Shown piece by piece: positions 4,863 to 32,644 of a stretch of 64,000 nt of DNA. Both the position numbers and the translations under genes were made by a program. This stretch comes from an uncultured Eubacteriales bacterium. GTDB taxonomy: Bacteria > Bacillota > Clostridia > Lachnospirales > Lachnospiraceae. How positions within the stretch are numbered: position 1 is the stretch's first letter; each line of letters starts with the position of its first letter. The notes beneath the pieces are model-generated. The model was not told the origin of the DNA, did not search any database, and saw only the letters and a program-made list of their open reading frames with translations. Location of the stretch: the NCBI GenBank assembly GCA_963528005.1, contig CAURSM010000023.1:11211-75210 (forward strand). The letters are read 5' to 3'.

Positions 4863-4873
4863 AATCCCCTCCA

Positions 4874-6579: not shown

Positions 6580-6587
6580 TTTTAATA

Positions 6588-7640: not shown

Positions 7641-7657
7641 CCCATTTCCTCCCTGTC

Positions 7658-8044
7658 TCAAAGTTCAAAATCGTACTCACCTGCATGAACCAGAATATGT
7701 GGCATGTAGGAAGGTGCAATTGTCTGGGTACACTTGATGTGATGGTTACCAGGGGCCAGACCACCCTCTGCAATCACCGTAACCGTTCCATACTGGCCAA
7801 ACAGCCAGCGATTGCTGATTACAGTTTTCATCTCATCCTGTGTAAAGGTTTCCCCATTAACCGTAAACAATATGGATTCCCTGGGATATTCTACTCCATC
7901 TACATTGACTTCAATATTGCGTAAAATCGAAAGGGTGATGCCCCGATAATACTGAATCTTCATTTTAAAACAAAAACCTGTAACTCTGCCTTCTTCCTCT
8001 ATGTTTTGAAAGCCAAGAGGATGATACATCTGTTTTGGAAACAT
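7658..8044 (-). CDS. small C-glycoside deglycosidase beta-subunit-like protein (DgpB/DUF6379-like)
   Basis: 128 aa, positioned between the oxidoreductase and the TIM-barrel gene as in dgpABC-type loci. The YYRGITLSILRNIEVNVDG pattern resembles my recollection of this family. No search was possible. Confidence 0.6.
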   Translation of the reverse strand: MFPKQMYHPLGFQNIEEEGRVTGFCFKMKIQYYRGITLSILRNIEVNVDGVEYPRESILFTVNGETFTQDEMKTVISNRWLFGQYGTVTVIAEGGLAPGNHHIKCTQTIAPSYMPHILVHAGEYDFEL

Positions 8045-8073
8045 AATGATTTGGCTCCTTTTTATAATTTAAT

Positions 8074-9177: not shown

Positions 9178-9199
9178 ATTTGTTTTTCCTTTCTAAATC

Positions 9200-10567: not shown

Positions 10568-10820
10568 TTTTATTCTCCTATTCATTTTTTTGTGTCATGC
10601 GCGCATTTGAAATCCAGCTGTACCCTTATGATTTCTTGCTCTAATTATAGCAAAATGGACCATTCCTCACGTTTCTATATTCAGCTTTATTCTCTTTATT
10701 TCCGGCTTTATTTAACCTTTTATCTTTTCACTCCAACAAATAAATATATTAAAATTAAAGATTATCGAAATTAGTTAATATATATGATACAATGAAAAAA
10801 ATGGAATCTATGGAGGGGTC

Positions 10821-15671: not shown

Positions 15672-16826
15672 TTATTGGACCTTTTTATTCTTGAATATGA
15701 CAATCACCGCAATTAGTGCTGTAATCATCATTCCTATGGAAGAAACCATATATACATTGGAAGTCGTTACTTCTCCAAAGATTGATTTTGAAACCGTATT
15801 TAAGACAGCCGGGGACAAAAGCTGCCCAAGGCAGACGGCAACGTTAAAGCAAGCGGTTGCCATGGCAGTGGCAGTTGGTGTGACTGAATTTGAAAGAATG
15901 ACCATAGCCGTAGGTACAAAAAGCCCTTGAGAAAAACCACAGAACATAGCACCAACCATTAAAAGTGCTGCCTGGGATGGGAACAGAATGAGAAATACCG
16001 CACCAATGGTAAAACTAAACATAGCTGTAGGTATGGTGTACTTATTTGTAATAAGGCCAAGAATAAGTCCAACCAGAATCTGGGCACCAGAGAACACACC
16101 AGTCAAATTACCTGAAACAGATGTACTTCCAGCCAGACTTCCACTTAAATGCATGGATAGATTGGTAGAGAATGTAATCAGGAATAAAAATTCCATAAAA
16201 CCAACCGCTGCGATTGCAGCCACCGTCTTATTCAGCTTTATGGGCTCATGCTGATTTGTTTTCTGAATACCTGTGTCTGGTAGACAGGCAGCAATTAGAA
16301 ACATGGCAATAAAACCAATGATATGAATGAAATAAGCATATTGAAATCCTTTTGTTCCAAGCAAACCGCTGGCTACTGTAATAATTACCATCCCAGCTCC
16401 CACGCTGGCCGCCTGAATTCCCATAACAACAACACGCTCTTTTTCTTTAAAAAACGCTGCAACAACAGCTACATTCAGTGTGGTAGCAATCCCAAGACCG
16501 ATTCCATAAATGGTTCTGGATAAAAACAAAAGCATAAAGCTGTCTGATACAAAGGGGATAAATCCTGTGATTCCCGTAATAAAACAGCCCACTAAAAGCA
16601 ACTTTTTTTTACTGATTCTTACAACCAAAGAGCCAACTGCAACTGACATGACCATGGATAACAGGGTGGGGGCTGTAATTAGCATCTGAATTAGACTAAT
16701 ATTTACGTCTGGATAATGGAGCTTTATCTGCCCCAGGACCGGGGATATGCTAAATTGTAATCCTTGTACGAATGAAATACCAATGATAGATAGAATTATT
16801 TTAGTTTTCTTATATTGATCCGACAA
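15672..16826 (-). CDS. MFS transporter
   Basis: 384 aa with about 12 hydrophobic segments, located 41 nt downstream of the hydrolase gene. Confidence 0.75.
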   Translation of the reverse strand: MSDQYKKTKIILSIIGISFVQGLQFSISPVLGQIKLHYPDVNISLIQMLITAPTLLSMVMSVAVGSLVVRISKKKLLLVGCFITGITGFIPFVSDSFMLLFLSRTIYGIGLGIATTLNVAVVAAFFKEKERVVVMGIQAASVGAGMVIITVASGLLGTKGFQYAYFIHIIGFIAMFLIAACLPDTGIQKTNQHEPIKLNKTVAAIAAVGFMEFLFLITFSTNLSMHLSGSLAGSTSVSGNLTGVFSGAQILVGLILGLITNKYTIPTAMFSFTIGAVFLILFPSQAALLMVGAMFCGFSQGLFVPTAMVILSNSVTPTATAMATACFNVAVCLGQLLSPAVLNTVSKSIFGEVTTSNVYMVSSIGMMITALIAVIVIFKNKKVQ

Positions 16827-16867: not shown

Positions 16868-17725
16868 TCATGTTTTCCTGTTCCAAAATTCTTTTATCAG
16901 TTTCACCTGATTGCAATATTCTGTCATACAGTGAATCATCATTAGTTTCATCTCTCTCATAGTTTTATCCCGGTCTGGCTCCGGCTTATAAATAAGCGTT
17001 CCATCTTTCTGAAAGGTCAGGCCATTCCAGTAATGAACTTTTAATTCCCGGCCTGTATCAGTTTCTCTTGTATGCTGGACCATGCACATAACTCTTTCTC
17101 TTGTTTGGATTTCATTTATCTCCTCTGCTTTCCCACCAAGTCCCATGAGAAAAATACATTGAGGATCACGCTTAGAGATATCTTCCTTATGGATTCCCAA
17201 ATGTTCAAAACAAAAGTTGTTCCAATTCATCTCCATCCGCATCATTCCCCAGCCAAAGTCCTCAATCGCACCGTCTTCAAAATGAATGAGATGGGCCCCT
17301 GGATACCACGTTTTATAAAACAGGTTACAGTTTTCGTCATTAGCAAAACCTTCCTGGTAGTTTTTAATCATCTCATCCGTAATTCCGTCCTGCACGATTT
17401 TAATTGCAGCAAAGCCGATTCCATTAGACAACACTCCATAGCCATTTTCCGGATACGTATTACTCCCATCAAGAAGTATGCTTCCGGCAAGCTCTGGCAT
17501 ATAACATTCCTCTGGTTTAAGCGGTCCATGTTCCACTGCCCTTACATGCTCCGGCTGAAGCTCTGCCAGCGGTTCATAATAATATTTTGCAAAAGCAGAT
17601 TCACTCTCTTTCTTCGTTAACCCTATTGTCATATTTCTTAAATCTTCTAAGGAAACCTCATTCATCATTCTCCCGCAGGTACGAGGTGATACCATTATTT
17701 TTCCCTTACTAAATACACAAGCCAT
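16868..17725 (-). CDS. phloretin hydrolase / 2,4-diacetylphloroglucinol hydrolase (PhlG) family protein, putative
   Basis: 285 aa, the size of Phy/PhlG. It has a C-terminal H-x3-E pair (IHCMTEY) like the second His/Glu zinc ligands reported for PhlG, plus upstream WYPGAHLIHFED. It is next to TetR/MFS genes and near a chalcone isomerase homolog. GGAGG lies 7 nt before the ATG. Confidence 0.55.
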   Translation of the reverse strand: MACVFSKGKIMVSPRTCGRMMNEVSLEDLRNMTIGLTKKESESAFAKYYYEPLAELQPEHVRAVEHGPLKPEECYMPELAGSILLDGSNTYPENGYGVLSNGIGFAAIKIVQDGITDEMIKNYQEGFANDENCNLFYKTWYPGAHLIHFEDGAIEDFGWGMMRMEMNWNNFCFEHLGIHKEDISKRDPQCIFLMGLGGKAEEINEIQTRERVMCMVQHTRETDTGRELKVHYWNGLTFQKDGTLIYKPEPDRDKTMREMKLMMIHCMTEYCNQVKLIKEFWNRKT

Positions 17726-17912: not shown

Positions 17913-18545
17913 ATGGAGGCAAAAAGTGATAAAAAGCCAGGGAAGGGGCTACTGACAAAGAAAACCATAGCTGATTCCTATCTTGCTATGATTCCTTTTA
18001 AAAAGTGGGATAAAATTACGGTTAAGGAAATTTGTGCTGAGGCAGATATTACAAGGGGTACCTTTTATCTATATTACAATGATATTTATGACTTGATGGA
18101 ACAGATAGAAGCATCACTTCTTTCAGAACTGACAAAGAGATATTCAACACTTACAGATGACGATTCCTCTGCCTCATTTTCGAGAGATCTCCTATCCTTT
18201 GATGTGACCCCTCCTGCTATGTTTTTGACCTGGTTTGATTTTTGTAAAGATTATAAACGGGAAATGATTGCTTTATTGGACCGAAAGAATGGGGATATGT
18301 ATTTTATAAGTAAATTAAAGCATTTCTTATTAATCCATATCAATAACATCATGGATCGGGACGGATTACCTAAGGATGGACTCCGAACTCATTTTTCAAA
18401 GATATTTTTGGAGCTTCATTTAATGGCAGCTCAGACCTGGTTAGAGCAGGGAGACGACCAGTTTTTATCAACAGATGAAATCGTAAATCTTTTAAATACC
18501 ATGCGGGTTGGAGCCAGATATTTGTCCTACCGTAAACTTGTCTAG
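17913..18545 (+). CDS. TetR/AcrR family transcriptional regulator
   Basis: N-terminal HTH (ITVKEICAEADITRGTFYLYYNDIYDL). It is divergent from the hydrolase gene. Confidence 0.8.
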   Translation: MEAKSDKKPGKGLLTKKTIADSYLAMIPFKKWDKITVKEICAEADITRGTFYLYYNDIYDLMEQIEASLLSELTKRYSTLTDDDSSASFSRDLLSFDVTPPAMFLTWFDFCKDYKREMIALLDRKNGDMYFISKLKHFLLIHINNIMDRDGLPKDGLRTHFSKIFLELHLMAAQTWLEQGDDQFLSTDEIVNLLNTMRVGARYLSYRKLV

Positions 18546-18604: not shown

Positions 18605-18634
18605 AAAAAAGCTACAGACATTTCTGCCTGTAGC
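18605..18634 (-). terminator. Rho-independent terminator ending the long minus-strand unit
   Basis: On the minus strand, GCTACAGGCAGAAATGTCTGTAGC is followed by TTTTTTG. This is the first clear hairpin plus U-tract downstream of 28961. Confidence 0.7.
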
Positions 18635-18655
18635 CTAAATAAAAACATACTTTTT

Positions 18656-19870
18656 TTATGGATTTTTAATAAGCGCTGCAATGATAATTCCCACAACGAT
18701 AGCGCCCAGTAAGAAAAATAACGTACTAAAATAAGAACCACTAGAATCGTAGAGATAACCAGCAATGGTACTTCCAAAGGAAGCAAAAAATAAATTCATA
18801 TTTAGCACTGAAAAATTAATACTATAATTTTTTCTGCCATAAAAGGAACCTACAAAAGCTGAATTAGTCGTAGGTACGCCACCGTAGGCAAGCCCTGTTA
18901 ATATAAATCCCATAATCAGGATATAAAAGCTTCCGGTGCTTAATGATAAGATCAGAGATATAATGGCACTGCAAAACAAAACTTCATTGATGATCATTGT
19001 TTTTACACGGCCAAACCGATCAAACATTCCACCAAATATGACGCGTCCTATTCCATTAAAGATGGAGATCAATCCTACAACCGTGGCTATGGTCCCTGCA
19101 GAAGCCTCCGGCTTCACGGAAATAGCGATTGCTCCAGCCTGTGATATAACCGCAAGACCAGCAGCGCACAAAAGAATTGCCCATATGAAATAAAGCCAGA
19201 AGGAACTTCTTTTAATCATTTGTCTAAAATTCATTTCCTCAACGTTTACAATTTCACTATTATTAATTTCTTTCGTCATTCTTTCTGTTAAAGCCGCTGT
19301 CTCTTCGGCATTTGGCTTTCTAATAAACAACGCACTCAATAGCATAACGATAAAAAGAATAATTCCAAACAGTAATAAAGACCTTCGAAAGCTTTCTCCA
19401 GTTCCTGTAAAAGCCTGATATACCTTACCAATCAAGAAACTACCAAATCCAAATCCCATAAGAAGAATTCCTGAAATCAGACCCGGTTTATCCGGGAAAA
19501 ACTTTGTAACAGCGCCCATAATGGAATTATAGGCAATTCCAGATGCGGTTCCAGAAAGCACACCGTATCCAATGTAAAGGCCTATCAGTGAATTTGTTTT
19601 TGATGCGATAACAAATCCTCCTAAAAACAAAAACGCAGAAACAACCATATTTATTTTAACATTTACTTTTCCTGATAAAAGACCAGCAAAAAAACCTCCA
19701 AGACAAAAAAACATCATACAGATGGTAAAGGTCATGGAAAGCTGCGCACTGCTCCAATCAGTGAAGTATGCAGAAACCGGCCTGGAAATAACACTCCAGG
19801 CATAAATAAGTCCTGCAAATAATAACACCAGTACTCCCATTGCGGCATAAAGCCATCGCTTGTATTTCAT
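18656..19870 (-). CDS. MFS transporter (oxalate/formate antiporter-like subfamily)
   Basis: 404 aa, 12 TM segments, 15 nt downstream of the CHI homolog. Confidence 0.75.
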   Translation of the reverse strand: MKYKRWLYAAMGVLVLLFAGLIYAWSVISRPVSAYFTDWSSAQLSMTFTICMMFFCLGGFFAGLLSGKVNVKINMVVSAFLFLGGFVIASKTNSLIGLYIGYGVLSGTASGIAYNSIMGAVTKFFPDKPGLISGILLMGFGFGSFLIGKVYQAFTGTGESFRRSLLLFGIILFIVMLLSALFIRKPNAEETAALTERMTKEINNSEIVNVEEMNFRQMIKRSSFWLYFIWAILLCAAGLAVISQAGAIAISVKPEASAGTIATVVGLISIFNGIGRVIFGGMFDRFGRVKTMIINEVLFCSAIISLILSLSTGSFYILIMGFILTGLAYGGVPTTNSAFVGSFYGRKNYSINFSVLNMNLFFASFGSTIAGYLYDSSGSYFSTLFFLLGAIVVGIIIAALIKNP

Positions 19871-19885
19871 TGCTTCATTTCTCCT

Positions 19886-20722
19886 CTATCTTCTGGGCAT
19901 ATATCCACGGTACTGGCTATAAGCATCACAGGTCGGAACATCCTTGATGAAAATGCCTCTAATTTCAAATCCTGGTTTTAAATACGGAAATACATCACCT
20001 TCAGCTGCCCAGAAAGGTGCTTTAATTTTATCAGAAGTTTCTATGGCGATACGATGCCACGCCGTCGGACCTGTAAACCACATTTCAACAACTCGTCCCA
20101 TAGGGCAATTATTAATTGTTTGGTCTACTTTACTGGTAAGAATTCTTGTACAGCAGGAATTCTCAATAAAGAATGGAAATACCTCTTCAAACAACCACTT
20201 ATCACCATCTTCCTGGGATACTCCATCCGGATAGGATAAAGCAAAGTTCCAACAGTAATTAGGCCCATCTTCTAACATACGGCCAACTCCCTTAATATCT
20301 TCTTCCCACCACATAGGGCAAAATGCAAAGACAAATGGCGGGCAGCCATTGTTACCACCTGAACTGCGCCCTGCATCTCCAGTCAGCATTACTTCGCTTA
20401 CAGTCTGAGGAACAGTACCTTGCCACTTTAAGACTTCAATGGGGGTATATTCCTGAAAGGCTTTTACCTTCAAAGCTGCATCCATAATATCGACGTTCCA
20501 ATGGTGTTCGGTCAACTGCATACGCACCGTTCCAAATCGTTCTCCACCTGGAGGCACTGGAAGAGCATCAAAAAAAGCATATTTACCACAATAAGGCTCA
20601 AACTGAGCAATACTTTCTGGAATATGATGATAATACAACCAATGATGCAGTCTATGCCTATATTCTTCATCAATTACATCTACATATATAAAACTTCTCA
20701 TAGGATTGAATTCGATTGCCAT
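19886..20722 (-). CDS. chi: bacterial chalcone isomerase (Eubacterium ramulus CHI family) homolog
   Basis: It shares blocks that I recall from E. ramulus CHI: FNPMRSFIYVD, HIPES (the position of the catalytic His), QFEPYCGKYAF, RMQLTEHHW, FVFAFCPMWWEED, KWLFEE, FPYLKP and C-terminal YRGY. The length of 278 aa is similar to that enzyme. Confidence 0.8.
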   Translation of the reverse strand: MAIEFNPMRSFIYVDVIDEEYRHRLHHWLYYHHIPESIAQFEPYCGKYAFFDALPVPPGGERFGTVRMQLTEHHWNVDIMDAALKVKAFQEYTPIEVLKWQGTVPQTVSEVMLTGDAGRSSGGNNGCPPFVFAFCPMWWEEDIKGVGRMLEDGPNYCWNFALSYPDGVSQEDGDKWLFEEVFPFFIENSCCTRILTSKVDQTINNCPMGRVVEMWFTGPTAWHRIAIETSDKIKAPFWAAEGDVFPYLKPGFEIRGIFIKDVPTCDAYSQYRGYMPRR

Positions 20723-20723
20723 G

Positions 20724-21236
20724 TTAATTTCCCCTTTTTAACTTTCTCCGTAATAATATTTTTGTAAAATAATCCACCCCACACCCCACGTACCATACTC
20801 CTACAGCCATGGCGATTCCAATTTGAATCGGCAAGGTTTTTTCCGCCTGTATGTCTTTGAAAGACATCAGACTTAAACCGATGGCCCATCCGCATAACCA
20901 GGAAGGTAGAAATACAAAGTGTTCAAATATAGAAGCGATAACAACTGCCAACGCACCTAAAACTGCTAATGTAACAAACAACTCCAACGTTTCATTCCAA
21001 TTCACTACTTCCATGATTATTAAAGAAAGGACCGCCCATAAATTGCCAAGCCAAAAGCCTGCGGTAATCTTTACGCCATCCTCAATCCGGTTGCCATTTG
21101 TTGAGTACAGCCCCGCACAAATCAATGCCACGGCTCCTGTTTTAATTCCCAGGTGTGGAGCAGATACCGCCCATAAGGGCGGTAAAAGTCCAATAGCAAG
21201 AGCCAAAACTAATTGTTCTTTCTTTTTTTCATCCAT
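20724..21236 (-). CDS. small polytopic membrane protein (possibly DUF1097-like)
   Basis: 170 aa with 4-5 hydrophobic helices. It lies 1 nt upstream of chi and 6 nt downstream of the FMN reductase paralog. Confidence 0.5.
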   Translation of the reverse strand: MDEKKKEQLVLALAIGLLPPLWAVSAPHLGIKTGAVALICAGLYSTNGNRIEDGVKITAGFWLGNLWAVLSLIIMEVVNWNETLELFVTLAVLGALAVVIASIFEHFVFLPSWLCGWAIGLSLMSFKDIQAEKTLPIQIGIAMAVGVWYVGCGVDYFTKILLRRKLKRGN

Positions 21237-21242
21237 TTTTTA

Positions 21243-22187
21243 TTACACACGCTCACATAAAAAAGAAGAGGCAATGGAATCCATATAGCGTTTTTTACGA
21301 AGTTTAAATTCTTCTGTCTGGCGTACTTTTGCAAATGCACCTTCCATACGCTGAATATCATCTCCATGAATAAACTTTCCTGGGATTGTGTCATGAGCGT
21401 GTTCTAATTGTTCTACTGGGAAAACAAATTTTGTCTTTCCATCTTCAATCACAACATCTCCCACCATTCCGCATAAGCCACAGATAGCATTTGTAGATTC
21501 GTTATCCAGATAAAAGAGCTTATTATGACAATGAGGACATAATCCTTCTTCTCCCTGATAAGCAGCATTCTCTACATCTTTTGCGGCATTTGCTAATTTC
21601 ACACCAATTTTATGTACTTCAGCCAAACGTACGTCATCCATAATGAGCTCTTTCGCCCATGGATACCAGGTATTATCAATAATCTTCCACATTGGGGTGA
21701 GAGCCTGCATCGCATGTTCGCATTGAACTCTGGTTCCCCAGTCAGAACCTCCTACTCCCATGTAAGAAATCACTTTATCCTTTAGAATCCTTGGATCGAT
21801 TGCCTTTCCACCATTCTCCTCTGCTATCTTGGAACCAATGATGTTGTTTCCACGATCCATTCTAGGTCCGAAACGATCCATAATAGTATGGAATAGGCCA
21901 GAAGCCCCTTCCTCAAAGATAGGATCAGATATAATAATTCCATCTGCATCAAGCATTTTGTCTAAAAGCCAGTCAAAGTCATCCTTTATGACACACATAT
22001 TTCCTTTTCCACCTAATAGTGTCTTTACACAAGCACAACAACCGGTGCAATGCTTGATATCCAGTGATGACATTCTAATAAACTCTACCTCAGCACCTGT
22101 TTCCTTCGCTCCCATTAACGCTTCCATACAGATAGAATCATTTGTTCCGTTCTTTGTTCCAAAAGAAATACCTAAAACCTTCATCAT
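21243..22187 (-). CDS. iron-sulfur flavoprotein-like / NADPH-dependent FMN reductase family protein with C-terminal Cys4 extension (paralog 2; candidate flavone-reductase-type ene-reductase)
   Basis: MMKVLGISFG flavodoxin-like start, CTGCCAC...C cluster and CPHCH...CGLCG. It is colinear with 598..1563 over its full length. Confidence 0.7.
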   Translation of the reverse strand: MMKVLGISFGTKNGTNDSICMEALMGAKETGAEVEFIRMSSLDIKHCTGCCACVKTLLGGKGNMCVIKDDFDWLLDKMLDADGIIISDPIFEEGASGLFHTIMDRFGPRMDRGNNIIGSKIAEENGGKAIDPRILKDKVISYMGVGGSDWGTRVQCEHAMQALTPMWKIIDNTWYPWAKELIMDDVRLAEVHKIGVKLANAAKDVENAAYQGEEGLCPHCHNKLFYLDNESTNAICGLCGMVGDVVIEDGKTKFVFPVEQLEHAHDTIPGKFIHGDDIQRMEGAFAKVRQTEEFKLRKKRYMDSIASSFLCERV

Positions 22188-22209
22188 AATCTCCTTTTTC
22201 GTGTAAATA

Positions 22210-23598
22210 TTAATTTTCTTTCATTTTTAAAATATAAAATCCATCATCAAGGGCATCAATGATGATATAACCTCTATCATCTACCACAATATCCTCTGTT
22301 ACCGCCATACGAGGCCCCGGAAAACCTGGGAAAAATGATTCCTCTGGTTTTTTATTGGGATTTGGTGGAATAAAGTAAGCAATTTCCTTGATATAATATG
22401 GATCTGATACATCATAAACCCTAAGTCCTGCATGGAAATAACAGCAGTACACACGGTCTCCCCTCTGCTCCAGCCATGGTTTCTTATCCATAGGTTCATG
22501 TAGGTTATGAGGACCAAATGGGCCTGCCACTCCAAGTCCAGCTACATTAAAGTTTGGATATGGGAAGTCCTTTGGAACTTCCGGATATGGAAACTCAGCA
22601 ATCAAAGTAGGCTGTTTGGGGTCACTGACATCGATCATGTGTATGTTGTTTAATGCCTGAGCTCTTTTTATCCTATCTGGTGTAAAGAACTGGAAACGTT
22701 CTCCTTCGTTTTGACATACGACCAGATCACGCCCTGGCAGCGGGACTGCTGTATGGGTTCTTGCCCCTGATAACTCACTGGAGAATGCAGGCATCAGCGA
22801 TAATTCTCCCAGGCATTTCGGTCTTTCTACGTCCTGAACATCAAGAACTACCAGTCCTGCTCCGCCATAGCCGCAGTAAGCGATTCCATCACGAACAAAT
22901 GGCGGTCCGTGAAGCCAGCCTTTATCCATAAAGGAAGGAACGTGAGCGGCACCTGGATCAAAGTTTCGATCTGGATATCCGTCTGCATACTGATCTGGTC
23001 TCCACCAGCGTCCTGCTTCCACTGGACTCGTGGGGTCTTCAATATCAATAATGCGGTAAATCATTCCTTCAAAGCCTACGCAGTCACTGGATAAATGAAC
23101 ATATCTTCCACCGTTATACTGAAAACGGTGCACTCCAAGTACATGCTTTAATCCACAATCCCAATAGCCCAAAAATTCCGGATTCTCTGGGTCATTTTTC
23201 AGACTGTAAATTCGAATTCCTGCCTCACATTTTATATCAGCAAGTTTTGCCTGATCCACAAGGGCTCCTGGTCCGCTGCCGCAACTCATAGCTACAATCA
23301 TCAGATCGTCGGCAATCTGAATCTTGGGAGATGTAGTTGTTGGATACTCCTTCGGATTAACGAGTTCAAAGTGCTTCACAAATTTGGGATCATAAGGATC
23401 TGTTACATCACTAATCATGACCCCGTTCTTTGTTCCGCCAAAGCAGCAGCCATACAAATAATACTTACCTGCTGATGTTTTATAAAGGGCCATCTGGAAC
23501 ATCCCGCAGGTTCCATCTAAATCACTAAAAGAGCAAACTTCCAAATTTTTAATAAAACCGTTGTTTCCCTCTCCCTTAGCATAAAAATTATCTTTCAT
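22210..23598 (-). CDS. cytoplasmic LVIVD-repeat beta-propeller protein, function unknown
   Basis: 462 aa with repeated hydrophobic-strand plus D motifs (LMIVAM, RIIDIEDP, LVVLDVQD, IHMIDVSDP, LRVYDVSDP, YIIIDALDDG). No signal peptide. The start is 12 nt after the buk stop, with AGAGG as SD. Confidence 0.6.
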   Translation of the reverse strand: MKDNFYAKGEGNNGFIKNLEVCSFSDLDGTCGMFQMALYKTSAGKYYLYGCCFGGTKNGVMISDVTDPYDPKFVKHFELVNPKEYPTTTSPKIQIADDLMIVAMSCGSGPGALVDQAKLADIKCEAGIRIYSLKNDPENPEFLGYWDCGLKHVLGVHRFQYNGGRYVHLSSDCVGFEGMIYRIIDIEDPTSPVEAGRWWRPDQYADGYPDRNFDPGAAHVPSFMDKGWLHGPPFVRDGIAYCGYGGAGLVVLDVQDVERPKCLGELSLMPAFSSELSGARTHTAVPLPGRDLVVCQNEGERFQFFTPDRIKRAQALNNIHMIDVSDPKQPTLIAEFPYPEVPKDFPYPNFNVAGLGVAGPFGPHNLHEPMDKKPWLEQRGDRVYCCYFHAGLRVYDVSDPYYIKEIAYFIPPNPNKKPEESFFPGFPGPRMAVTEDIVVDDRGYIIIDALDDGFYILKMKEN

Positions 23599-23610
23599 AT
23601 TATTACCTCT

Positions 23611-24693
23611 CTACTGATTTTTCCTGCTATCTATGTAAGGCTCAGCTTCTTCCTCTCCCTTTAAAATACGAAGGGCACCTGCAGTTAAAGCTTCCAATTC
23701 ATTCTCGCCTGGCATAACCATGATCGGAGCCAGCTTGCTTACATATTCTTTAATCCACTGTGTCAACATTTGGGAATGAGCCACTCCGCCTGTTAAAATG
23801 ATAGCATCAACTTCTCCCTTTAAAACGGGAATGAGTTCACCAATTCCTTTTGCAATCTGGTACGCTTGCGCCTGGAATATTTTCTTCGCCAACTCGTTGC
23901 CATCCTGAATCATCTTCTCCACTTCAATACAGCTGGAAGTGCCAAGATAGGCTTTCATACCGCCCATACCGGAAACTTTTTTCTTCATATCCCTTTTACT
24001 GTAAGTTCCGCTGTAACACATGTCGATTACGTAATTTAATGGTATGCTTCCTGATCTTTCTGGAGAAAAAGGACCTCCATCGGCTGGAATTGCATCTACT
24101 ATTTTACCCTTTTCATGAGCACTGACTGAGATTCCACCACCTAAATGGGCAACAATAAAGTTCATTTCCTGATATGTTTTTCCCAATTCAGATGCTGCTT
24201 TTCTTGCCATTGCCTTGGAGTTTAATACATGACAAAAACTTTGTCTTACTACCTCTGGCATTCCGGTTACTTTTGCAATCTCTGCCATTTCATCAGAACC
24301 TACCGCATCATAGATATAGGCAGGTATGCCCAGAGGCGCTGCAATGGCATCTGAAATCAAAGCACCCAGGTTCGATGCGTGTTCAATGGTAGAAGGATCT
24401 GTTAGCTTTTTTCTCATATCCTCTGTCACCAGATAACCACCTGCATGGATATTTACCAGCTGGCCGCCTCTTCCCACAACTGCAGATAATTCCTTCACAT
24501 CTACGCCATGTTTATCTAGTGCATTTAGAATATTTTCCTTACGCATGTCAAATTCATCTACCACTCTGTCATACTTTTTTAACTCTTCATCAGAATGTGT
24601 AACGCTTTCTGTAAATAACTCTTTCTCGCCTTCGTAAACTCCGATTTTTGTGGAGGTAGAGCCAGGGTTAACTGCTAAAATTTTATAACTCAT
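23611..24693 (-). CDS. buk: butyrate (short/branched-chain acyl) kinase
   Basis: The N-terminus ILAVNPGSTSTKIGVY and the overall ASKHA-fold sequence are typical of Buk. Confidence 0.9.
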   Translation of the reverse strand: MSYKILAVNPGSTSTKIGVYEGEKELFTESVTHSDEELKKYDRVVDEFDMRKENILNALDKHGVDVKELSAVVGRGGQLVNIHAGGYLVTEDMRKKLTDPSTIEHASNLGALISDAIAAPLGIPAYIYDAVGSDEMAEIAKVTGMPEVVRQSFCHVLNSKAMARKAASELGKTYQEMNFIVAHLGGGISVSAHEKGKIVDAIPADGGPFSPERSGSIPLNYVIDMCYSGTYSKRDMKKKVSGMGGMKAYLGTSSCIEVEKMIQDGNELAKKIFQAQAYQIAKGIGELIPVLKGEVDAIILTGGVAHSQMLTQWIKEYVSKLAPIMVMPGENELEALTAGALRILKGEEEAEPYIDSRKNQ

Positions 24694-24708
24694 TGTACTT
24701 CTCCTTCT

Positions 24709-25614
24709 TTAATCTACTGCCGCTGCTGAAACTGCAATGGATAAGAATTTTTCCTCTGCAGACGATCCTCTGGAAGTTAATACAATCGGACATTTTGCTC
24801 CAACTACAAACCCTGCCATCTTCGCCTTACAAGTACAGGTCAGCATCTTACCCATGATATTTCCTGCATGGATGTTAGGAGCCACCAGCACATCAACATC
24901 ACCAGCAATTTGGCTTTCATAGTTTTTGAGCTTGGCAATCTCTGCATCAATGGCACAATCATAGGAAATAGGGCCTTCTATGATACAGTTCTTGATTTCG
25001 CCTTCCTGATTCATACGGGCAAGCTCTGCCGCTTCCACTGTTTCCGGCATTTTAGGGTTCACTTTTTCTACGCAGGTTAAAACTCCCACTTTCGGACAGT
25101 CGTAGCCCATGGATCTTAAGGTTTCCACCGTATTTTCAATGATGGATTTCTTTTGTTCCAAAGTCGGATAGGCAACCATGCCTCCGTCTACAGGTACTAA
25201 TATTTTATGGTAGGAAGGAACATCAAACATAGAAAAATGGGACATAACACCGCCTTTTCCCAAGCCTTTCTCTTTGTCAACCACCGCCTTTAAAAGTATA
25301 GCCGTATCCAAATATCCCTTCATTAAAAAATCTGCTTTTCCTTCTCGAATCAAAGAGACCGAAAATTCGGCAGCCTCTTTGTTATCAGTGGCTAAATAGA
25401 TGTCCTCTTCTGGAACCTCTTCTCCAAGCTTTTTTAATATTCCAAGAATTACTTCTTTATCACCCACTAATATAGGTCCGGCGATTCCTTCTTTTCTGGC
25501 ATGCAGAGCAGCTTCAAGAGTATGTTCCTCTCCTGCCGCAGCGATTACCATTCGTTTCATGGAAGGAAATTTTTTTACTTTATCAATTAATTCATCAAAA
25601 CTTCTATAGATCAT
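24709..25614 (-). CDS. ptb: phosphate butyryltransferase (phosphotransacylase)
   Basis: 301 aa of Pta/Ptb family sequence, immediately upstream of buk. Confidence 0.85.
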   Translation of the reverse strand: MIYRSFDELIDKVKKFPSMKRMVIAAAGEEHTLEAALHARKEGIAGPILVGDKEVILGILKKLGEEVPEEDIYLATDNKEAAEFSVSLIREGKADFLMKGYLDTAILLKAVVDKEKGLGKGGVMSHFSMFDVPSYHKILVPVDGGMVAYPTLEQKKSIIENTVETLRSMGYDCPKVGVLTCVEKVNPKMPETVEAAELARMNQEGEIKNCIIEGPISYDCAIDAEIAKLKNYESQIAGDVDVLVAPNIHAGNIMGKMLTCTCKAKMAGFVVGAKCPIVLTSRGSSAEEKFLSIAVSAAAVD

Positions 25615-25626
25615 CTGGCTCTCTCC

Positions 25627-26172
25627 TTATCTTTGTGACTGACCAATTGAAAGACCTCTTTCAAAAGCTAGTTTATTAAGAGGAAGGAGCTTTGGTTTGC
25701 TTTTCAGTTTATGCTCAATGGTTGACCATACAATTTCCGGATCAATAACATTTGTAAATCCTACATATACACCAAGCATAATCACATTTAGTACCTTTGC
25801 ATTTCCAAGTTCCAAGGCAAGCTCCGTAACAGGTGCTTTCACTATTTTAACGTCGCTTCTTTCTATCTCATCCGTAACAATGGAACTGTTAATAAAAAGC
25901 GTTCCTCCCTGTTTTAACGTGGGCAAAAACTTTTGTAAGGATGGTCCGTTCATGATAACCAAATCGTCCATCACATCACCAAGAGGAGCTCCAATGGTTT
26001 CATCGGAAATTACAACAAAACAATTGGCGGTACCACCTCTTTGCTCCGCTCCGTAAGAAGGGAAAAACGTAACATTTTTATTTGTAGAATCACAGGTTGC
26101 CGAAGCCAGGAATTTTCCAAGGGTCATAACACCCTGTCCGCCAAAACCGGCCACACACAAATTTGTCTCCAT
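25627..26172 (-). CDS. 2-oxoacid:ferredoxin oxidoreductase gamma subunit
   Basis: 181 aa with GFGGQGV near the N-terminus, typical of POR/VOR/KOR gamma subunits. Confidence 0.85.
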   Translation of the reverse strand: METNLCVAGFGGQGVMTLGKFLASATCDSTNKNVTFFPSYGAEQRGGTANCFVVISDETIGAPLGDVMDDLVIMNGPSLQKFLPTLKQGGTLFINSSIVTDEIERSDVKIVKAPVTELALELGNAKVLNVIMLGVYVGFTNVIDPEIVWSTIEHKLKSKPKLLPLNKLAFERGLSIGQSQR

Positions 26173-26185
26173 TCAATTTTCCTCC

Positions 26186-26923
26186 TTATCGATCTCTGAT
26201 TACACCCAGAGGAAATTCCGGGAGCATCTTCTCTTCTATAAAATCAAGAGATTTCATTGCATCAAGCCCCCAGTTTGTCGGACAGCTGGTGACTATTTCT
26301 ACCATGGAAAATCCTTTGCCCTCAAGCTGGTTTTGAAATGCCTTTTGAATTGCTTTCTTTGTTTTCATTACATTGACTGGGGTATTGCAGCTAGTCCGTT
26401 CTAAATAAGCCGGAGCCGTCAGTTGGTCTAATATCTCACACATGTGCATGGGATAACCATGTTCCTTAGGATCACGACCCTTGGGAGCGGTGCTCGCCTT
26501 CATGCCTACTAAGGTGGTAGGAGCCAATTGTCCGCCAGTCATACCGTAAATACCATTGTTAATGAAAATAACTGTGATATTCTCTCCTCGATTGGCTGCT
26601 GACATGGATTCCCCCAAACCGATGGAAGCAAAATCTCCATCTCCCTGATATGTAAATACAAGACTGTCAGGACTTGCCTTTTTCATTCCAGTCGCCACTG
26701 CACAGGCACGACCATGAGGCGCTGTCGTATTGTCATAGGCCATATAGTCCATCTGAAGACCACAGCAGCCGATTCCAAGGACGCAAGCCGCCTTGTCCAC
26801 CAAATTCATCTCATCTAATACTTCTCCGATCAGCTTCATTACAGTGCCATGCATGCATCCAGGACAAAAGCCAGAAACTTTATCCTCCTGAATGGTTTTT
26901 GTTCTTGCATAAATCTGCTTCAT
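26186..26923 (-). CDS. 2-oxoacid:ferredoxin oxidoreductase beta subunit (TPP-binding)
   Basis: FCPGCMHG and the GDGD TPP/Mg motif (YQGDGDFASIG). Confidence 0.85.
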   Translation of the reverse strand: MKQIYARTKTIQEDKVSGFCPGCMHGTVMKLIGEVLDEMNLVDKAACVLGIGCCGLQMDYMAYDNTTAPHGRACAVATGMKKASPDSLVFTYQGDGDFASIGLGESMSAANRGENITVIFINNGIYGMTGGQLAPTTLVGMKASTAPKGRDPKEHGYPMHMCEILDQLTAPAYLERTSCNTPVNVMKTKKAIQKAFQNQLEGKGFSMVEIVTSCPTNWGLDAMKSLDFIEEKMLPEFPLGVIRDR

Positions 26924-26933
26924 CTTTTCCCTC

Positions 26934-28019
26934 CTATTTTGAAACCATTTTTCTTACTGCTTCCATTACTGCCTCACGGCTTATAATGTTGCCACCTGAG
27001 CAAAGGCAGGTTTCAATGGGGCAGCGCCCTTTCACACCAGTTTCCACATCCGTTACAAACTGGGCAGGAATAGACATCTCAACATCAAGAACTGCTTTTA
27101 CCTTGCTATAATCGATGTGGTCAAATGCGCTGTAAGGAAATGGCTGAACGGTTATGGCACGAAGAAGCCCTACCTTTATGCCCTCTTTCCGCAATAAATC
27201 CACAGCCGCTTTTGCGATACGGGCTGATATTCCATAGGCCGTAATCACTACCTCTGCATCTTCGATCAGATATTCTTCCGCCAGGGCCTCTTTCTCCCAG
27301 CTTTTATAAAGAGCTGCTGCTTCTTCGTTAGCCACCTGCATATCGCTGGTTTTCCAATGTCCTGGCTGAATCCAGGAACGGTTTGCAAGGTCTAGTGGAT
27401 GTCCAATACAGGACCAGGATTTCTTTGACTCTTTGATGGACGCAATCTCTTCATCCGGTTTCATTTCCGGAAGTACGACAGGCTCCATCATTGTTCCAAT
27501 AACTCCATCTGCTAAAATAAGCACCGGATTTCGATCGCGGTCTGCATAATCAAATGCCTGATACGTCATATCTACAGCTTCCTGTACCGATGCTGGTGCA
27601 AACACAAGCATTTGAAATCCACCGTTACCGGATGCCTTGGTCGCCTGATAGTAATCCATCTGCGCCGGTTGAATGGAACCAACTCCAGGGCCACCTCTAG
27701 AAACATTGACATAGACCATGGGGATTCTGGCTGATGCACAGTAAGAGATTCCCTCGCTCTTTAGCGCAATTCCAGGACTTGATGAAGATGTCATGGATCT
27801 GACACCCGCACTGGCAGCTCCATACACCATGTTTACGGAAGCTACTTCTGATTCTCCCTGTACAAAATTACCGTTTACTTCCGGCATTCTTCTTGCAAAA
27901 TATTCCGGTATTTCATTCTGAGGAGTAATTGGATAACCAGCAAAAAATCGACAACCGGCTCTAACTGCTGCTTCTGCTATTGCTTCGCAGCCTTTCATAA
28001 ACACTCTAGACATTTTCAA
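26934..28019 (-). CDS. 2-oxoacid:ferredoxin oxidoreductase alpha subunit
   Basis: KGCEAIAEAAVRAGCRFFAGYPITPQNEI is the canonical alpha-subunit N-terminus. Confidence 0.85.
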   Translation of the reverse strand: MKMSRVFMKGCEAIAEAAVRAGCRFFAGYPITPQNEIPEYFARRMPEVNGNFVQGESEVASVNMVYGAASAGVRSMTSSSSPGIALKSEGISYCASARIPMVYVNVSRGGPGVGSIQPAQMDYYQATKASGNGGFQMLVFAPASVQEAVDMTYQAFDYADRDRNPVLILADGVIGTMMEPVVLPEMKPDEEIASIKESKKSWSCIGHPLDLANRSWIQPGHWKTSDMQVANEEAAALYKSWEKEALAEEYLIEDAEVVITAYGISARIAKAAVDLLRKEGIKVGLLRAITVQPFPYSAFDHIDYSKVKAVLDVEMSIPAQFVTDVETGVKGRCPIETCLCSGGNIISREAVMEAVRKMVSK

Positions 28020-28030
28020 TAACCTCCTGA

Positions 28031-28234
28031 TTACTTATAAACTTCTATGGCACCATCGGGACAAATTTTTCCGCAAATGCAACAACCAATACAAGCTTCC
28101 ATATTTGACGGAATCACATATTCATAACCCTTTGAATTCACTTTTGTTCCAACTGTCAAAACGCTTTTGGGGCAGAACTTTATGCAGTAACCACAACCTT
28201 TGCAGCGTTCCGCAACCACTTTTATTTCAGCCAT
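28031..28234 (-). CDS. 2-oxoacid:ferredoxin oxidoreductase delta subunit (2x[4Fe-4S] ferredoxin)
   Basis: CKGCGYCIKFCP and CIGCCICGKICP. I prefer the internal ATG at 28234 (MAEIKVV); the track start at 28276 would overlap the upstream gene. Confidence 0.75.
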   Translation of the reverse strand: MAEIKVVAERCKGCGYCIKFCPKSVLTVGTKVNSKGYEYVIPSNMEACIGCCICGKICPDGAIEVYK

Positions 28235-28253
28235 ATCCTTCATTTCCTCCTTC

Positions 28254-28961
28254 TTATACAGACTCCATAGATACAACCCAGGGATAGGTAAGATAAAGAT
28301 GCAAGGGCATTACAGGAATATTTAGCTTATACTTCACCTTATCAAAAAGTTCTTCTCTCACACAGACAAAATCCAGTTCCTTATAAGTCATGATTAGTTC
28401 TGTAAGTTTTTTATTCCCCTCCAGAACTTCTATTTCATTGGTATGACACCCTATATTAGGATTACTAATTAAGTGAAGCTTACCGATATCTATATGTGAT
28501 ACGCTCAAGATTTCACTTAGCACTTTATCAATGCGTTCCAGATCATAAGACCATGGCCGATAAGGATTGATTACGTAATAAACCATAGTATCGCCTCGGT
28601 TAATCAAGGGCGCAAAACCACCTATGGATCTGGCCCCAATATAATCTCCACCTACATCCATAACAACATAAGTTTCCTCATCCTTTAGGAATCTACTTAC
28701 GCCGCCTACCAGAGTTGGCGCATCCATAAACTGTTCTTCATAATGAAAATCAATTCCCAACTCTGTAAAGCTCCGGCTAAGATCCCTGGAACGGAACAAC
28801 GGTTTTGTCATGTCCATATCAAAGAAATGTACCTTCTTATTTCCTGAATCCACAAGCTGCTTTGCAATATTAACTGCGATTTCACTTTTCCCGCAGCCTG
28901 CTTCACCAATAAATAAGAAATTATTATATTTCTCATCTATTATTGGAACTTCCTTGTTCAT
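28254..28961 (-). CDS. P-loop NTPase of unknown function (SIMIBI/MinD-Mrp-like)
   Basis: Walker A GEAGCGKSE and Walker-B-like VVMDVGGD. It is the first gene of the long minus-strand unit. Confidence 0.55.
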   Translation of the reverse strand: MNKEVPIIDEKYNNFLFIGEAGCGKSEIAVNIAKQLVDSGNKKVHFFDMDMTKPLFRSRDLSRSFTELGIDFHYEEQFMDAPTLVGGVSRFLKDEETYVVMDVGGDYIGARSIGGFAPLINRGDTMVYYVINPYRPWSYDLERIDKVLSEILSVSHIDIGKLHLISNPNIGCHTNEIEVLEGNKKLTELIMTYKELDFVCVREELFDKVKYKLNIPVMPLHLYLTYPWVVSMESV

Positions 28962-29221
28962 CTTATCTCTCCCTTCCGATAAAAGTTACCTATTTAATCT
29001 CTTATCTATCCCCTATCATAATGATTTATTTTATTGAAATCCAATACTTTATTTGGTGATTCTCATAAGTTAAACTTATTTATTTAGTAATACATTCACA
29101 TTACACAATATATTTTTGTGCACTTTGTACAAATGTTTTAAAAAATAGTTTTCAAATCTTTTTTTGTGGTTTATAATAATTTTTAGTTATATATATCGTA
29201 TCGTTTATAGGGAGTACTTTT

Positions 29222-30118
29222 ATGAATTTAAGACAATTAGAATATTTTGTTTCCGTAGCAGAAACATTAAGTTTTACAAAGACAGCAGAAAAGTTTTTTA
29301 TTTCTCAGACGGCTGTCACGCAGCAAATCAAAGCATTAGAAGAACAGATAGAAGTGAAACTATTAAGACGAACCAAGCGGCATGTGGAGCTGACTCCGGC
29401 AGGAAGTATATTCTTAACCGAATCGAAAGCCATACTTAGCCGGACTGAAAATGCAATTCAAAAAACAAAAAAAGCCGCAACCGGCTTTACTGGAAATATA
29501 AATCTCGGTATTATAGAAGGGTATGATAACCCCGATCTTCCTGGCATTCTCCGTTCCTTTCGTACCGGATATCCCAACATTTCCATTTCCATTCAGGAAG
29601 GGGGAGCAGGTCCTTTATATTTGCAGCTATTGAACCAGACTCTTGATGTGGTTATCAATGCCCGCTTTTCCTATAGCAAGCTGGAAGATAAAAAGATTTC
29701 CTATAAGATAATGAAAAAGTACAAATTAATTGTTATGCTTCCTACCACGCATCCTCTGGCTTACCGAAGTATTTTGAATCTTTACGACTTAAAAAATGAT
29801 TCTTTTATTTTCACTTCCTTTGGTGATGCGGAAGACAGCTTTGGTCATTTTGAGAGCACCATAGCTCATTTTATACGGTCTGGCTTTACCCCTCATATCG
29901 TGCAACATTCCGTAAATTTTAACACAACCGCACTTATGGTGGCCGCTAATATGGGGGTGGCGGTATTGCCCTCTTATGCTCTTTCTTCCAGTAGAAACAT
30001 TGAAAATCTGGTAACAATTCCTCTTGATGAGGAAGCTGATAAGTTTGAAATTGTGGCCGCCCGTTTTAACGAAAACATGAACCCTACAATTGATAAATTC
30101 TTGTCCTATATAAAATAA
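29222..30118 (+). CDS. LysR family transcriptional regulator
   Basis: The N-terminal HTH is MNLRQLEYFVSVAETLSFTKTAEKFFISQTAVTQQIKALE. It is divergent from the 12-gene unit across a 260-bp AT-rich region. Confidence 0.9.
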   Translation: MNLRQLEYFVSVAETLSFTKTAEKFFISQTAVTQQIKALEEQIEVKLLRRTKRHVELTPAGSIFLTESKAILSRTENAIQKTKKAATGFTGNINLGIIEGYDNPDLPGILRSFRTGYPNISISIQEGGAGPLYLQLLNQTLDVVINARFSYSKLEDKKISYKIMKKYKLIVMLPTTHPLAYRSILNLYDLKNDSFIFTSFGDAEDSFGHFESTIAHFIRSGFTPHIVQHSVNFNTTALMVAANMGVAVLPSYALSSSRNIENLVTIPLDEEADKFEIVAARFNENMNPTIDKFLSYIK

Positions 30119-32623: not shown

Positions 32624-32644
32624 TAATATAATCAACTCCTACTT

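Follow-up and report, generated by a model that had tools for sequence, protein, structure and literature searches.

Gut bacteria have been known since 2001 to convert quercetin-type flavonols to 3,4-dihydroxyphenylacetate (DOPAC) and phloroglucinol, and among the main compounds that dietary flavonols give rise to in the circulation are DOPAC and related phenylacetic acids. Two enzymes acting on these compounds are described: FLR, which reduces the C2=C3 bond of flavones and flavonols and needs its C-terminal tail for activity (PMC7862272), and the chalcone isomerase CHI, which in Eubacterium ramulus contracts taxifolin to alphitonin (PMC13515148). For the step after alphitonin, from auronol to arylacetate, reviews of 2024 and 2026 assign no enzyme (PMC11572103, PMC13515148), which bears out an earlier note on the DNA studied here that had described the late enzymes as poorly defined. 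C. decagia, which has CHI, converts quercetin, taxifolin and alphitonin to DOPAC, C. scindens, which is without CHI, yields dihydroxyphenyllactate, and a dihydroxyphenylpyruvate intermediate was proposed from metabolite data in the same 2024 Catenibacillus study (PMC11170127). Here we analyse a 64,000-nucleotide stretch from an uncultured Lachnospiraceae bacterium (assembly GCA_963528005.1, contig CAURSM010000023.1, positions 11,211 to 75,210; hereafter the window), and in it a twelve-gene unit that holds FLR and CHI genes together with genes for a 2-oxoacid:ferredoxin oxidoreductase (OFOR), a Ptb-family transacylase, a Buk-family kinase and a beta-propeller of the LVIVD family.

The closest described relatives of the OFOR, Ptb and Buk proteins come from tyrosine fermentation. 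In C. scatologenes, HpdDEFG is a hydroxyphenylpyruvate:ferredoxin oxidoreductase with a Km of 6 µM that accepts phenylpyruvate and is inactive on pyruvate (PMC13285125). Its partners are HpdJ, a Ptb-type phosphate hydroxyphenylacetyltransferase, and HpdK, a Buk-type hydroxyphenylacetate kinase, which jointly yield ATP (Jiang et al. 2026, PMC13285125). The same paper describes these enzymes as tyrosine-induced, states that C. drakei carries an identical hpd cluster, and places HpdE with the Vor enzymes although it is arylpyruvate-specific; flavonoids are not mentioned in it (PMC13285125).

The operon and the route proposed for it

We propose that the twelve genes encode a LysR-controlled, redox-neutral and ATP-yielding flavonol fermentation, a reading to which we assign a probability of roughly 60%. 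Flavonol would be imported by the MFS transporter and/or the DUF1097 protein. FLR would reduce the C2=C3 bond of quercetin to give taxifolin and CHI would contract the C-ring to give the auronol alphitonin, both being known activities of these families. The open 1,2-diketone form of the auronol, an acylphloroglucinol, would then be hydrolysed at the bond between A-ring and carbonyl to release phloroglucinol and 3,4-dihydroxyphenylpyruvate, with the LVIVD propeller as the lead candidate for this step. The Hpd-type OFOR, on the basis of its 80-85% identity to its counterpart in the C. drakei hpd locus, would decarboxylate the arylpyruvate oxidatively, forming arylacetyl-CoA together with CO2 and reduced ferredoxin, after which the Ptb-type enzyme would make arylacetyl phosphate and the Buk-type kinase would release DOPAC with formation of ATP. 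The proposed sum, quercetin + 2 H2O -> phloroglucinol + DOPAC + CO2, is balanced for C, H and O, and the carbon lost would be C-4 of the flavonol. FLR consumes two electrons and the OFOR sets two free, so that the unit would be self-contained, with one ATP gained for each flavonol through substrate-level phosphorylation. Cleavage of the auronol between its two carbonyls, to trihydroxybenzoate and an arylacetaldehyde, was also considered and is less likely: no enzyme that would oxidise the aldehyde is linked, whereas enzymes for 2-oxoacids are repeatedly linked.

The part of the route that starts from the 2-oxoacid is anchored in a comparison with C. drakei. The window OFOR comprises four separate subunits (ferredoxin, POR_N/PFOR_II, TPP_C and POR gamma), an architecture as in HpdDEFG. 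Compared with locus L012 of C. drakei (L-numbers are the locus labels of this comparative analysis), identity was 79.8% for alpha, 84.0% for beta, 85.1% for gamma and 68% for delta, 62.5% for the P-loop protein, 55.7% for Ptb (the HpdJ orthologue) and 56.9% for Buk (the HpdK orthologue). The order in L012 is ptb, P-loop, ferredoxin, alpha, beta, gamma and buk, followed by the N-terminus of HpdB, all of whose first 98 residues align at near identity to C. scatologenes HPAD (2y8n, E 3.5e-57). Because HpdB directly follows buk, we take L012 to be an hpd locus orthologous to the characterised HpdDEFG/J/K cluster. From the identities to the C. drakei hpd proteins, the window OFOR, Ptb and Buk are predicted to act on arylpyruvates and arylacetyl thioesters, and a strict branched-chain specificity of the OFOR appears unlikely. 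The module would probably process an arylpyruvate derived from flavonols.

Family models for these proteins carry other names. OFOR alpha passes the NCBIfam VorB subfamily model (426.1 against a cut-off of 399), but this model does not discriminate between substrates, since the arylpyruvate-specific HpdE also groups with Vor enzymes. Similarly, Buk passes butyrate kinase models (TIGR02707, 467.3 against 289.1), which do not discriminate between substrates either, since HpdK belongs to the same family. Ptb falls below the cut-offs of both phosphate butyryltransferase equivalogs (TIGR02706, 316.9 against 410.5; NF005837, 280.5 against 409) and is thus placed as a member of the family, yet not as a butyryl equivalog. 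The P-loop protein gave nothing beyond Walker-A matches in PDB and NCBIfam searches, and its AF2 model, built from a single sequence, was unusable (pLDDT 45). Its gene precedes that of the ferredoxin subunit in each of the 14 CHI loci with an Hpd-type OFOR, and it recurs both in the hpd locus of C. drakei and in the CHI-less locus L092; it tracks the OFOR rather than CHI.

On the flavonoid side, the assignments follow from characterised structures. Residues 2-305 of the FMN_red protein align to residues 1-302 of FLR structure 7d38 (E 1e-136, ~73% identity), and the Cys-rich ribbon (CPHCH...C.LCG motif) and the C-terminal region of 7d38 are kept. The protein is therefore assigned as the flavone/flavonol reductase FLR, which acts on quercetin to give taxifolin; of the label FMN reductase given to it before, the family stands and the generic name gives way to that of a known enzyme. 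The Chalcone_N protein aligns full length (residues 4-277) to E. ramulus CHI (4d06/3zph, E 2.8e-87, ~55-60% identity), which places it with the CHI type that makes alphitonin from taxifolin. His33, which we take to be the catalytic residue of CHI, and Gln101 were invariant among 26 family members. Position 79 in the alignment to 4d06 is Ile in the window protein, and an Asp sits at 78. The substrate-binding residues of CHI are Gln101 and Asp79 (PMC11572103). The DUF1097 gene recurs in unrelated loci, either between FLR and CHI or beside LVIVD, and its product possibly has a role in transport. Orthologues of the MFS gene close the cluster in L002, L003, L008, L053, L058, L090 and L091.

These genes form one compact unit. 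The ORF listing gave twelve minus-strand genes in a row (28961 to 18656), as the earlier note had described, and a public metagenome scaffold of identical sequence carries the same gene calls. The intergenic gaps, in operon order, are 19, 17, 10, 13, 12, 15, 12, 25, 6, 1 and 15 nt. The lower end of the range of 1-22 nt given in that note was exact and the upper end was not, the measured range being 1-25 nt; the propeller/FMN_red gap is 25 nt, or 22 nt if the alternative ATG of FMN_red is used. The junction between buk and the propeller gene reads cagTAG-AGAGGTAATAAT-ATG, precisely the 12-nt spacer with a Shine-Dalgarno sequence that had been reported. A lone terminator had been placed near 18605-18634, and indeed the sole strong intrinsic terminator found on the minus strand reads from 18636 to 18609. 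The remaining minus-strand matches inside the unit have stems of 5-6 bp and lie within coding sequence; matches totalled 17, against 11.5 +/- 3.4 expected from shuffling, and a search for internal terminators or promoters within the operon gave none above chance. The 12-gene order of the window is also found on contigs L002, L003, L090 and L008 (in L008 with all 12 genes), so the arrangement is not an accident of assembly.

The 260-bp AT-rich region and divergent LysR gene noted upstream were likewise found (28962-29221 and 29222-30118). GC content is 0.30 across 29000-29499. Next to the LysR start lies a conserved block, ATATATAACTAAAAATTATTATAA (29196-29171), followed by a LysR-type dyad of the form T-N11-A, ATAAGTTTAACTTAT (29079-29065), and by a promoter-like pair of boxes, TTGGAT (29044-29039) and TATGAT (29020-29015), separated by an 18-nt spacer. 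The ribosome-binding site in this region is GGAAGGGAGAG. When six orthologous intergenic regions, that of the window among them, were aligned, the conserved columns were the block, the dyad and the promoter-like boxes. The LysR gene adjoins the cluster in most related loci, and its product is likely the activator of the operon. No Rfam family of riboswitch or leader RNA matched between 15000 and 31000. The coordinates of all features are collected below.

Features of the operon, its control region and the adjoining unit (window coordinates)
Feature	Coordinates	Strand	Basis
Intrinsic terminator of the operon	18609..18636	-	12-bp stem, then T-run, 20 nt past the MFS stop codon
MFS transporter (MFS_1), last operon gene	18656..19870	-	Pfam
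Bacterial chalcone isomerase CHI (Chalcone_N, PF18232)	19886..20722	-	Pfam, E 2.6e-49
DUF1097 small membrane protein (PF06496)	20724..21236	-	Pfam
FLR, flavone/flavonol ene-reductase (FMN_red)	21243..22187 (alternative start 22184)	-	Full-length match to PDB 7d38
LVIVD beta-propeller, cytoplasmic, 462 aa, candidate auronol C-C hydrolase	22210..23598	-	PF08309
Buk-family kinase (HpdK-like), predicted arylacetate kinase	23611..24693	-	Acetate_kinase family
Ptb-family transacylase (HpdJ-like), predicted phosphate arylacetyltransferase	24709..25614	-	PTA_PTB
OFOR gamma (HpdG-like)	25627..26172	-	POR family
OFOR beta, TPP-binding (HpdF-like)	26186..26923	-	TPP_enzyme_C
OFOR alpha (HpdE-like)	26934..28013	-	POR_N and PFOR_II
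OFOR delta, 2x[4Fe-4S] ferredoxin (HpdD-like)	28031..28234	-	Fer4 families; 67 aa on public scaffold
P-loop protein, 235 aa	28254..28961	-	Walker A GEAGCGKS; weak CbiA/AAA matches
Regulatory region	28962..29221	-	260 bp, AT-rich; features from sequence and alignment, function predicted
Divergent LysR-family regulator	29222..30118	+	HTH_1 and LysR_substrate domains
Neighbouring unit: TetR regulator	17913-18545	+	Pfam
Neighbouring unit: Phy/DAPG-hydrolase-like protein	16868-17725	-	Pfam
Neighbouring unit: MFS protein	15672-16826	-	Pfam

Recurrence of the linkage and the LVIVD propeller

A scan with a CHI profile, taking one genome per species, gave 80 loci with 10-kb flanks, which were searched by tblastn with the window proteins and checked with Pfam. 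The nearest relatives of the window locus were from Lachnospiraceae metagenome-assembled genomes, one of them labelled Lacrimispora sp. An arylpyruvate-type OFOR was present within 10 kb of CHI in 26 of the 80 loci, which are not phylogenetically independent; it was of the Hpd type in 14 and of the IOR type in 12. FLR was found in 54 of the loci, LVIVD and ptb in 28 each, and buk in 24. The 14 Hpd-type loci always included the P-loop and ferredoxin genes. In the other 12, the OFOR is the two-subunit IOR, the classical indolepyruvate/arylpyruvate enzyme, and is usually bracketed by, or beside, ptb and buk.

The linkage takes at least seven gene orders in two phyla (Bacillota and Chloroflexi), and these vary across Lachnospiraceae, Clostridiaceae, Peptostreptococcaceae, Oscillospiraceae, Enterococcus and Chloroflexi. 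The window order is shared by several Lachnospiraceae and a Blautia liquoris-type contig, and a further, distinct Lachnospiraceae order was found in L073. Peptostreptococcaceae including Metaclostridioides mangenotii have LVIVD-FLR-DUF1097-CHI-Ploop-Fd-OFOR-ptb-buk-MFS, one Enterococcus hirae assembly has FLR-CHI-OFOR-ptb-buk-LVIVD-MFS, and Leptolinea (Chloroflexi) has FLR-CHI-LVIVD...IOR-ptb-buk. In Flavonifractor spp. the two halves of the cluster diverge around LysR, and C. drakei and C. muellerianum have an order of their own in common. When the closest homologues of OFOR alpha were sampled instead, two of three sat in full CHI/LVIVD clusters (Blautia liquoris-type and Metaclostridioides mangenotii).

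The C. difficile genome has five OFOR loci (PMC13285125). Allowing up to five such loci per genome and a 20-kb neighbourhood (<1% of a 3-6 Mb genome), we roughly estimate that chance alone would bring OFOR and CHI close together in no more than a few per cent of genomes, compared with the 26 of 80 observed. Both the rearrangements and the exchange of one OFOR type for another point to selection for the linkage. The earlier note had suggested looking for OFOR-ptb-buk-chi in other genomes, and the answer is that the linkage is not unique, occurring as it does in CHI loci of different species. Together, the orthology to hpd and this recurrent, rearranged linkage support the reading given there of the three enzymes as a path from arylpyruvate to arylacetate and ATP. 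Its description of the branch as new survives for the genetic link and not for the parts, given that the arylpyruvate intermediate and the OFOR/Ptb/Buk trio had already been published. In the literature covered, which left subscription journals largely outside, alphitonin, CHI or FLR were not joined to OFOR, phenylpyruvate, butyrate kinase or LVIVD, the 2024 Catenibacillus hypothesis excepted; the genetic link was not made and the propeller was not named in any paper found. FLR, CHI and the arylpyruvate trio of tyrosine fermentation are thus individually known, and the propeller could be a new enzyme class.

The related loci hold further small proteins. A protein of 223-230 aa with no Pfam match lies between IorB and buk in IOR-type clusters (L016 3599-4270; homologues in L017, L021, L022, L025 and L027); it was tried as a homologue of the P-loop protein and rejected, the sequences being unrelated. 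Beside FLR/CHI, a protein of ~157 aa with no Pfam match occurs in L084 (6932-7405) and L082 (6919-7422), and also in L004, L005, L006, L053, L058, L073 and L077; it has no homologue in the window. A related group of ~158 aa is encoded between the CHI and LVIVD genes of Flavonifractor, Pseudoflavonifractor and Leptolinea.

Apart from FLR, LVIVD is the most faithful companion of CHI. The window protein has no signal peptide, and its AF2 model, from an alignment of 40 sequences, is all-beta with a pLDDT of 90.3 and a pTM of 0.91. The top Foldseek match of the model was 5hrm (E 5e-17), with generic WD40 propellers at ~1e-8. This structure is Sb-PTE, the phosphotriesterase of Sphingobium sp. TCM1, described as a hydrolase with a binuclear metal centre in a seven-bladed propeller. 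Within the LVIVD family, H157, H230, H282, H320, H364, H367, E298, E300, E368 and D323 are invariant, as are the motifs NEGER (297-301) and HNLHEPM (364-370).

To place the propeller we read the neighbourhoods of six sampled homologues (62-73% identity). Four were beside or near CHI, and two were beside an OFOR and an ADP-forming acyl-CoA synthetase. In L082 and L084 a compact LysR-x-FLR-CHI-DUF1097-LVIVD module sits between housekeeping genes, and one sampled homologue adjoins a divergent CHI gene. L089 has the order CHI-...-LVIVD-Fd-OFOR(alpha, beta, gamma)-ADP-forming acyl-CoA synthetase. In L087 the propeller gene is flanked on one side by such an OFOR-synthetase module and on the other by genes for SDR, 3HCDH-like, Cyclase and BKACE proteins, the set of phloroglucinol pathway enzymes defined in C. 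scatologenes (PMC10470551). The ADP-forming synthetase of L087 and L089 is an alternative way of gaining ATP from the same thioester. In both of these Lachnospiraceae loci, genes of the Lactamase_B (metallo-beta-lactamase) and Glyoxalase folds accompany the LVIVD, OFOR and synthetase genes.

Because its neighbours make auronols, consume 2-oxoacids and consume phloroglucinol, the propeller fits an auronol-splitting enzyme. Its context and modelled fold make it our lead candidate for that role, tentatively and at somewhat under even odds. In that event it may, with similar reserve, represent a new kind of C-C hydrolase that converts alphitonin or maesopsin to phloroglucinol and an arylpyruvate and so completes a widespread redox-neutral, ATP-yielding flavonol fermentation.

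Two cultured clostridia show the arrangement in other forms. In C. drakei SL1 (L012, 7384-20858), LysR, LVIVD, CHI, FLR, DUF1097 and a sigma-54 activator (PrpR_N/PAS) lie directly upstream of hpdJ, P-loop, hpdDEFG, hpdK and hpdB. That these flavonoid genes precede the hpd cluster suggests that kaempferol-type flavonols could feed the formation of 4-hydroxyphenylacetate and p-cresol. C. difficile (L066 and L068, ~5680-10850) has LysR and LVIVD-FLR-DUF1097-CHI, with no OFOR within 10 kb, and its LVIVD is ~84% identical to that of the window. The C. difficile CHI cluster represents hundreds of member sequences, so the module would be common in this species.

Competing explanations

Several observations weigh against the proposed fermentation or parts of it. 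Co-transcription, flavonoid induction and the substrates of the operon are predictions from comparative genomics, and the role proposed for the LVIVD protein is read from its neighbourhood and fold alone. Sequence and profile alignments to 5hrm span the LVIVD repeat motifs only, with no mappable metal ligands or catalytic residues, and the LVIVD homologue of L088 has neither CHI nor OFOR nearby, its neighbours being genes for an SDR, a metallo-beta-lactamase-fold protein and a 2-hydroxyacid dehydrogenase. Ptb and Buk share only ~56% identity with the HpdJ and HpdK orthologues. The Hpd-type OFOR family also occurs without CHI (L092) and is tyrosine-induced in C. scatologenes, so it is not flavonoid-specific. 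Within 10 kb of CHI-FLR, neither OFOR nor LVIVD was found in E. ramulus or C. decagia; since both organisms make DOPAC, their downstream enzymes would be unlinked or different.

For the cleavage step, an enzyme of the Phy/DAPG-hydrolase type may be imagined in place of the propeller, with the same pathway from the arylpyruvate onward. Such a gene (16868-17725) follows the operon at a distance of 930 bp and could be a rival or auxiliary source of C-C cleavage; its product has a DAPG_hydrolase domain (47.8 bits against a cut-off of 22.7) and no sequence match in the PDB. Its substrate would be either the auronol or a hydroxy-dihydrochalcone made by an Fcr-type reductase, an aryl-lactate product would then be oxidised to the 2-oxoacid, and the propeller would have another job, such as hemiketal opening, handling of auronol stereoisomers or substrate binding. 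The route by Fcr and Phy from taxifolin to dihydroxyphenyllactate and phloroglucinol is established (PMC13515148), and LVIVD is absent from the vicinity of CHI in the DOPAC makers E. ramulus and C. decagia. Open alphitonin is chemically an acylphloroglucinol, like phloretin, which makes Phy a genuine competitor for this step. However, the Phy-like gene belongs to a separate, TetR-linked unit past the terminator; outside the window, CHI is accompanied by this TetR/Phy/MFS unit in L003 alone, and a Phy-like gene is CHI-linked in 1 of the 80 loci. The operon holds no gene of the lactate dehydrogenase type, and LVIVD is joined to OFOR modules and phloroglucinol genes where no Phy gene is present. 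We therefore consider cleavage by Phy unlikely, though it is the foremost of the alternatives.

Less probable still is that two independent modules share the operon, OFOR/Ptb/Buk serving the oxidative branch of Stickland fermentation of Tyr and Phe and FLR/CHI/LVIVD serving flavonoid detoxification, so that they travel together as an island for aromatic compounds with no common intermediate. HpdDEFG/J/K are indeed characterised as tyrosine-fermentation enzymes induced by tyrosine (PMC13285125), and each module is found alone in some genomes (L082, L084, L092 and E. ramulus). On the other hand, the frequency of linkage exceeds the rough chance expectation, and the linkage survives rearrangement, the exchange of Hpd-type for IOR-type OFOR and the exchange of Ptb/Buk for an ADP-forming synthetase. 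Furthermore, the operon has no aminotransferase, only 12 nt separate buk from the propeller gene, and the joint pathway is exactly redox-balanced. It is also conceivable that the automatic annotation is correct, and that a branched-chain Vor-type OFOR with a true Ptb and Buk makes branched or short-chain fatty acids, for instance after phloroglucinol breakdown. The VorB and butyrate kinase models are passed, as given above, and a butyrate kinase is induced on phloroglucinol in C. scatologenes (PMC10470551). Nevertheless, HpdE clusters with Vor and is arylpyruvate-specific, the window OFOR is 80-85% identical to that of the orthologous locus, Ptb stays below both equivalog cut-offs, and other CHI loci have IOR, an enzyme for arylpyruvates, in place of this OFOR. 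Phloroglucinol breakdown, moreover, gives acetyl-CoA and acetoacetate-type products and not 2-oxoacids (PMC10470551). We regard a branched-chain role as very improbable, and retain flavonol fermentation as the preferred reading.

The surrounding island and comparison with described systems

The rest of the window also appears to be dedicated to flavonoids, and from its gene content we assign it as a flavonoid-utilisation island. Genes for C-glycoside deglycosidases of the DgpC/DgpB/DgpA type (AP_endonuc_2 TIM barrel, CGDB and GFO_IDH_MocA) occur with an MFS_2 sugar transporter and, after them, two glycoside hydrolase family 39 (GH39) genes, the second fused to an AraC-type helix-turn-helix domain, at 6588-10585 (-) and 10821-15615 (+). 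A second FLR paralogue (598-1584, -) is 34% identical to the operon FLR. It stands in a minus-strand run (598-6325) with a NuoF-like NADH_4Fe-4S/ferredoxin protein (1588-2781), a 698-aa Fer2/Fe-S/Pyr_redox_2 protein (2778-4874) and an FAD_binding_2 flavoprotein (4874-6325), and this run may encode another flavonoid reductase with its own electron-input subunits. A region at 45491-51278 holds a beta-glucoside-type phosphotransferase system (EIIA and EIIBC), a BglG-type antiterminator, GH1 and GH2, and may act on flavonoid O-glycosides or glucuronides. A beta subunit of a Na+-translocating decarboxylase (OAD_beta) is encoded upstream, on the LysR side (31472-32635). A prismane/hybrid-cluster protein is found both in the window (42784-44706) and directly after CHI-FLR in E. 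ramulus (L039 10049-11770). For neither of these proteins is a connection evident. No genes for phloroglucinol degradation were found within the window, so that branch would be located elsewhere in the genome or in other organisms.

If the proposed fermentation is correct, the operon and its relatives offer a complete and testable gene set for the conversion of flavonols to arylacetates, and one candidate for the cleavage step that lacks an enzyme, whose fold had not been tied to C-C hydrolysis before. Oxidative decarboxylation of an arylpyruvate would explain the lost carbon mechanistically, and a yield of one ATP at zero net redox cost would provide an energetic rationale for flavonol breakdown. 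The genes would serve as markers to predict which microbiomes turn flavonols into arylacetates, and thousands of genes automatically annotated as VorB, phosphate butyryltransferase or butyrate kinase would be open to reinterpretation. In carriers of HpdBCA, kaempferol-type flavonols would be an unrecognised precursor of 4-hydroxyphenylacetate and p-cresol, with both gene sets in the same locus in C. drakei; C. difficile, which carries the LVIVD-FLR-DUF1097-CHI module, would be another such organism. Cultured carriers include C. scatologenes/drakei, Blautia liquoris, Metaclostridioides mangenotii, Flavonifractor spp. and, for the upstream module, C. difficile.

Compared with the FLR-CHI genes of Flavonifractor plautii and E. 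ramulus (Yang et al. 2021; Braune et al. 2016), the window has the same adjacency of FLR and CHI, and a neighbouring LysR gene is common to those systems, the window and most of the 80 loci. As described, those systems end at alphitonin for flavonols and handle flavones by an enoate reductase/Fcr and Phy. The window operon goes further, adding the propeller, DUF1097, OFOR, Ptb, Buk and a transporter in one unit. Phy and PhlG, of the DAPG hydrolase family, catalyse the reaction type proposed here, the release of phloroglucinol from an aryl ketone by C-C hydrolysis, whereas the candidate in the window is an unrelated seven-bladed LVIVD propeller and its Phy-like gene lies outside the operon. The propeller shares the LVIVD-type repeat motif with Sb-PTE, but the two are 15% identical and differ in substrate class, and the window protein lacks a signal peptide.

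IOR, with Pta/Ack-type partners in amino-acid fermenters, has the same pathway role as the Hpd-type OFOR of the window and replaces it in 12 CHI loci; it differs in its fused two-subunit architecture and is ~25% identical to the window OFOR in the gamma-type subunit. The closest counterpart is HpdDEFG/J/K of C. scatologenes, which has the same subunit set, the same Ptb- and Buk-type partners and the accessory P-loop gene, and for which the same chemistry is proposed, from arylpyruvate to arylacetate, CO2, reduced ferredoxin and ATP. Whereas the C. scatologenes module is associated with the glycyl-radical decarboxylase HpdBCA, that of the window shares its operon with FLR, CHI and the propeller. 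The 2-oxoacid would accordingly differ in origin, coming from tyrosine in C. scatologenes and, as we propose, from flavonol in the window, where the likely substrate of the OFOR, unlike that of Hpd, bears a catechol B-ring.

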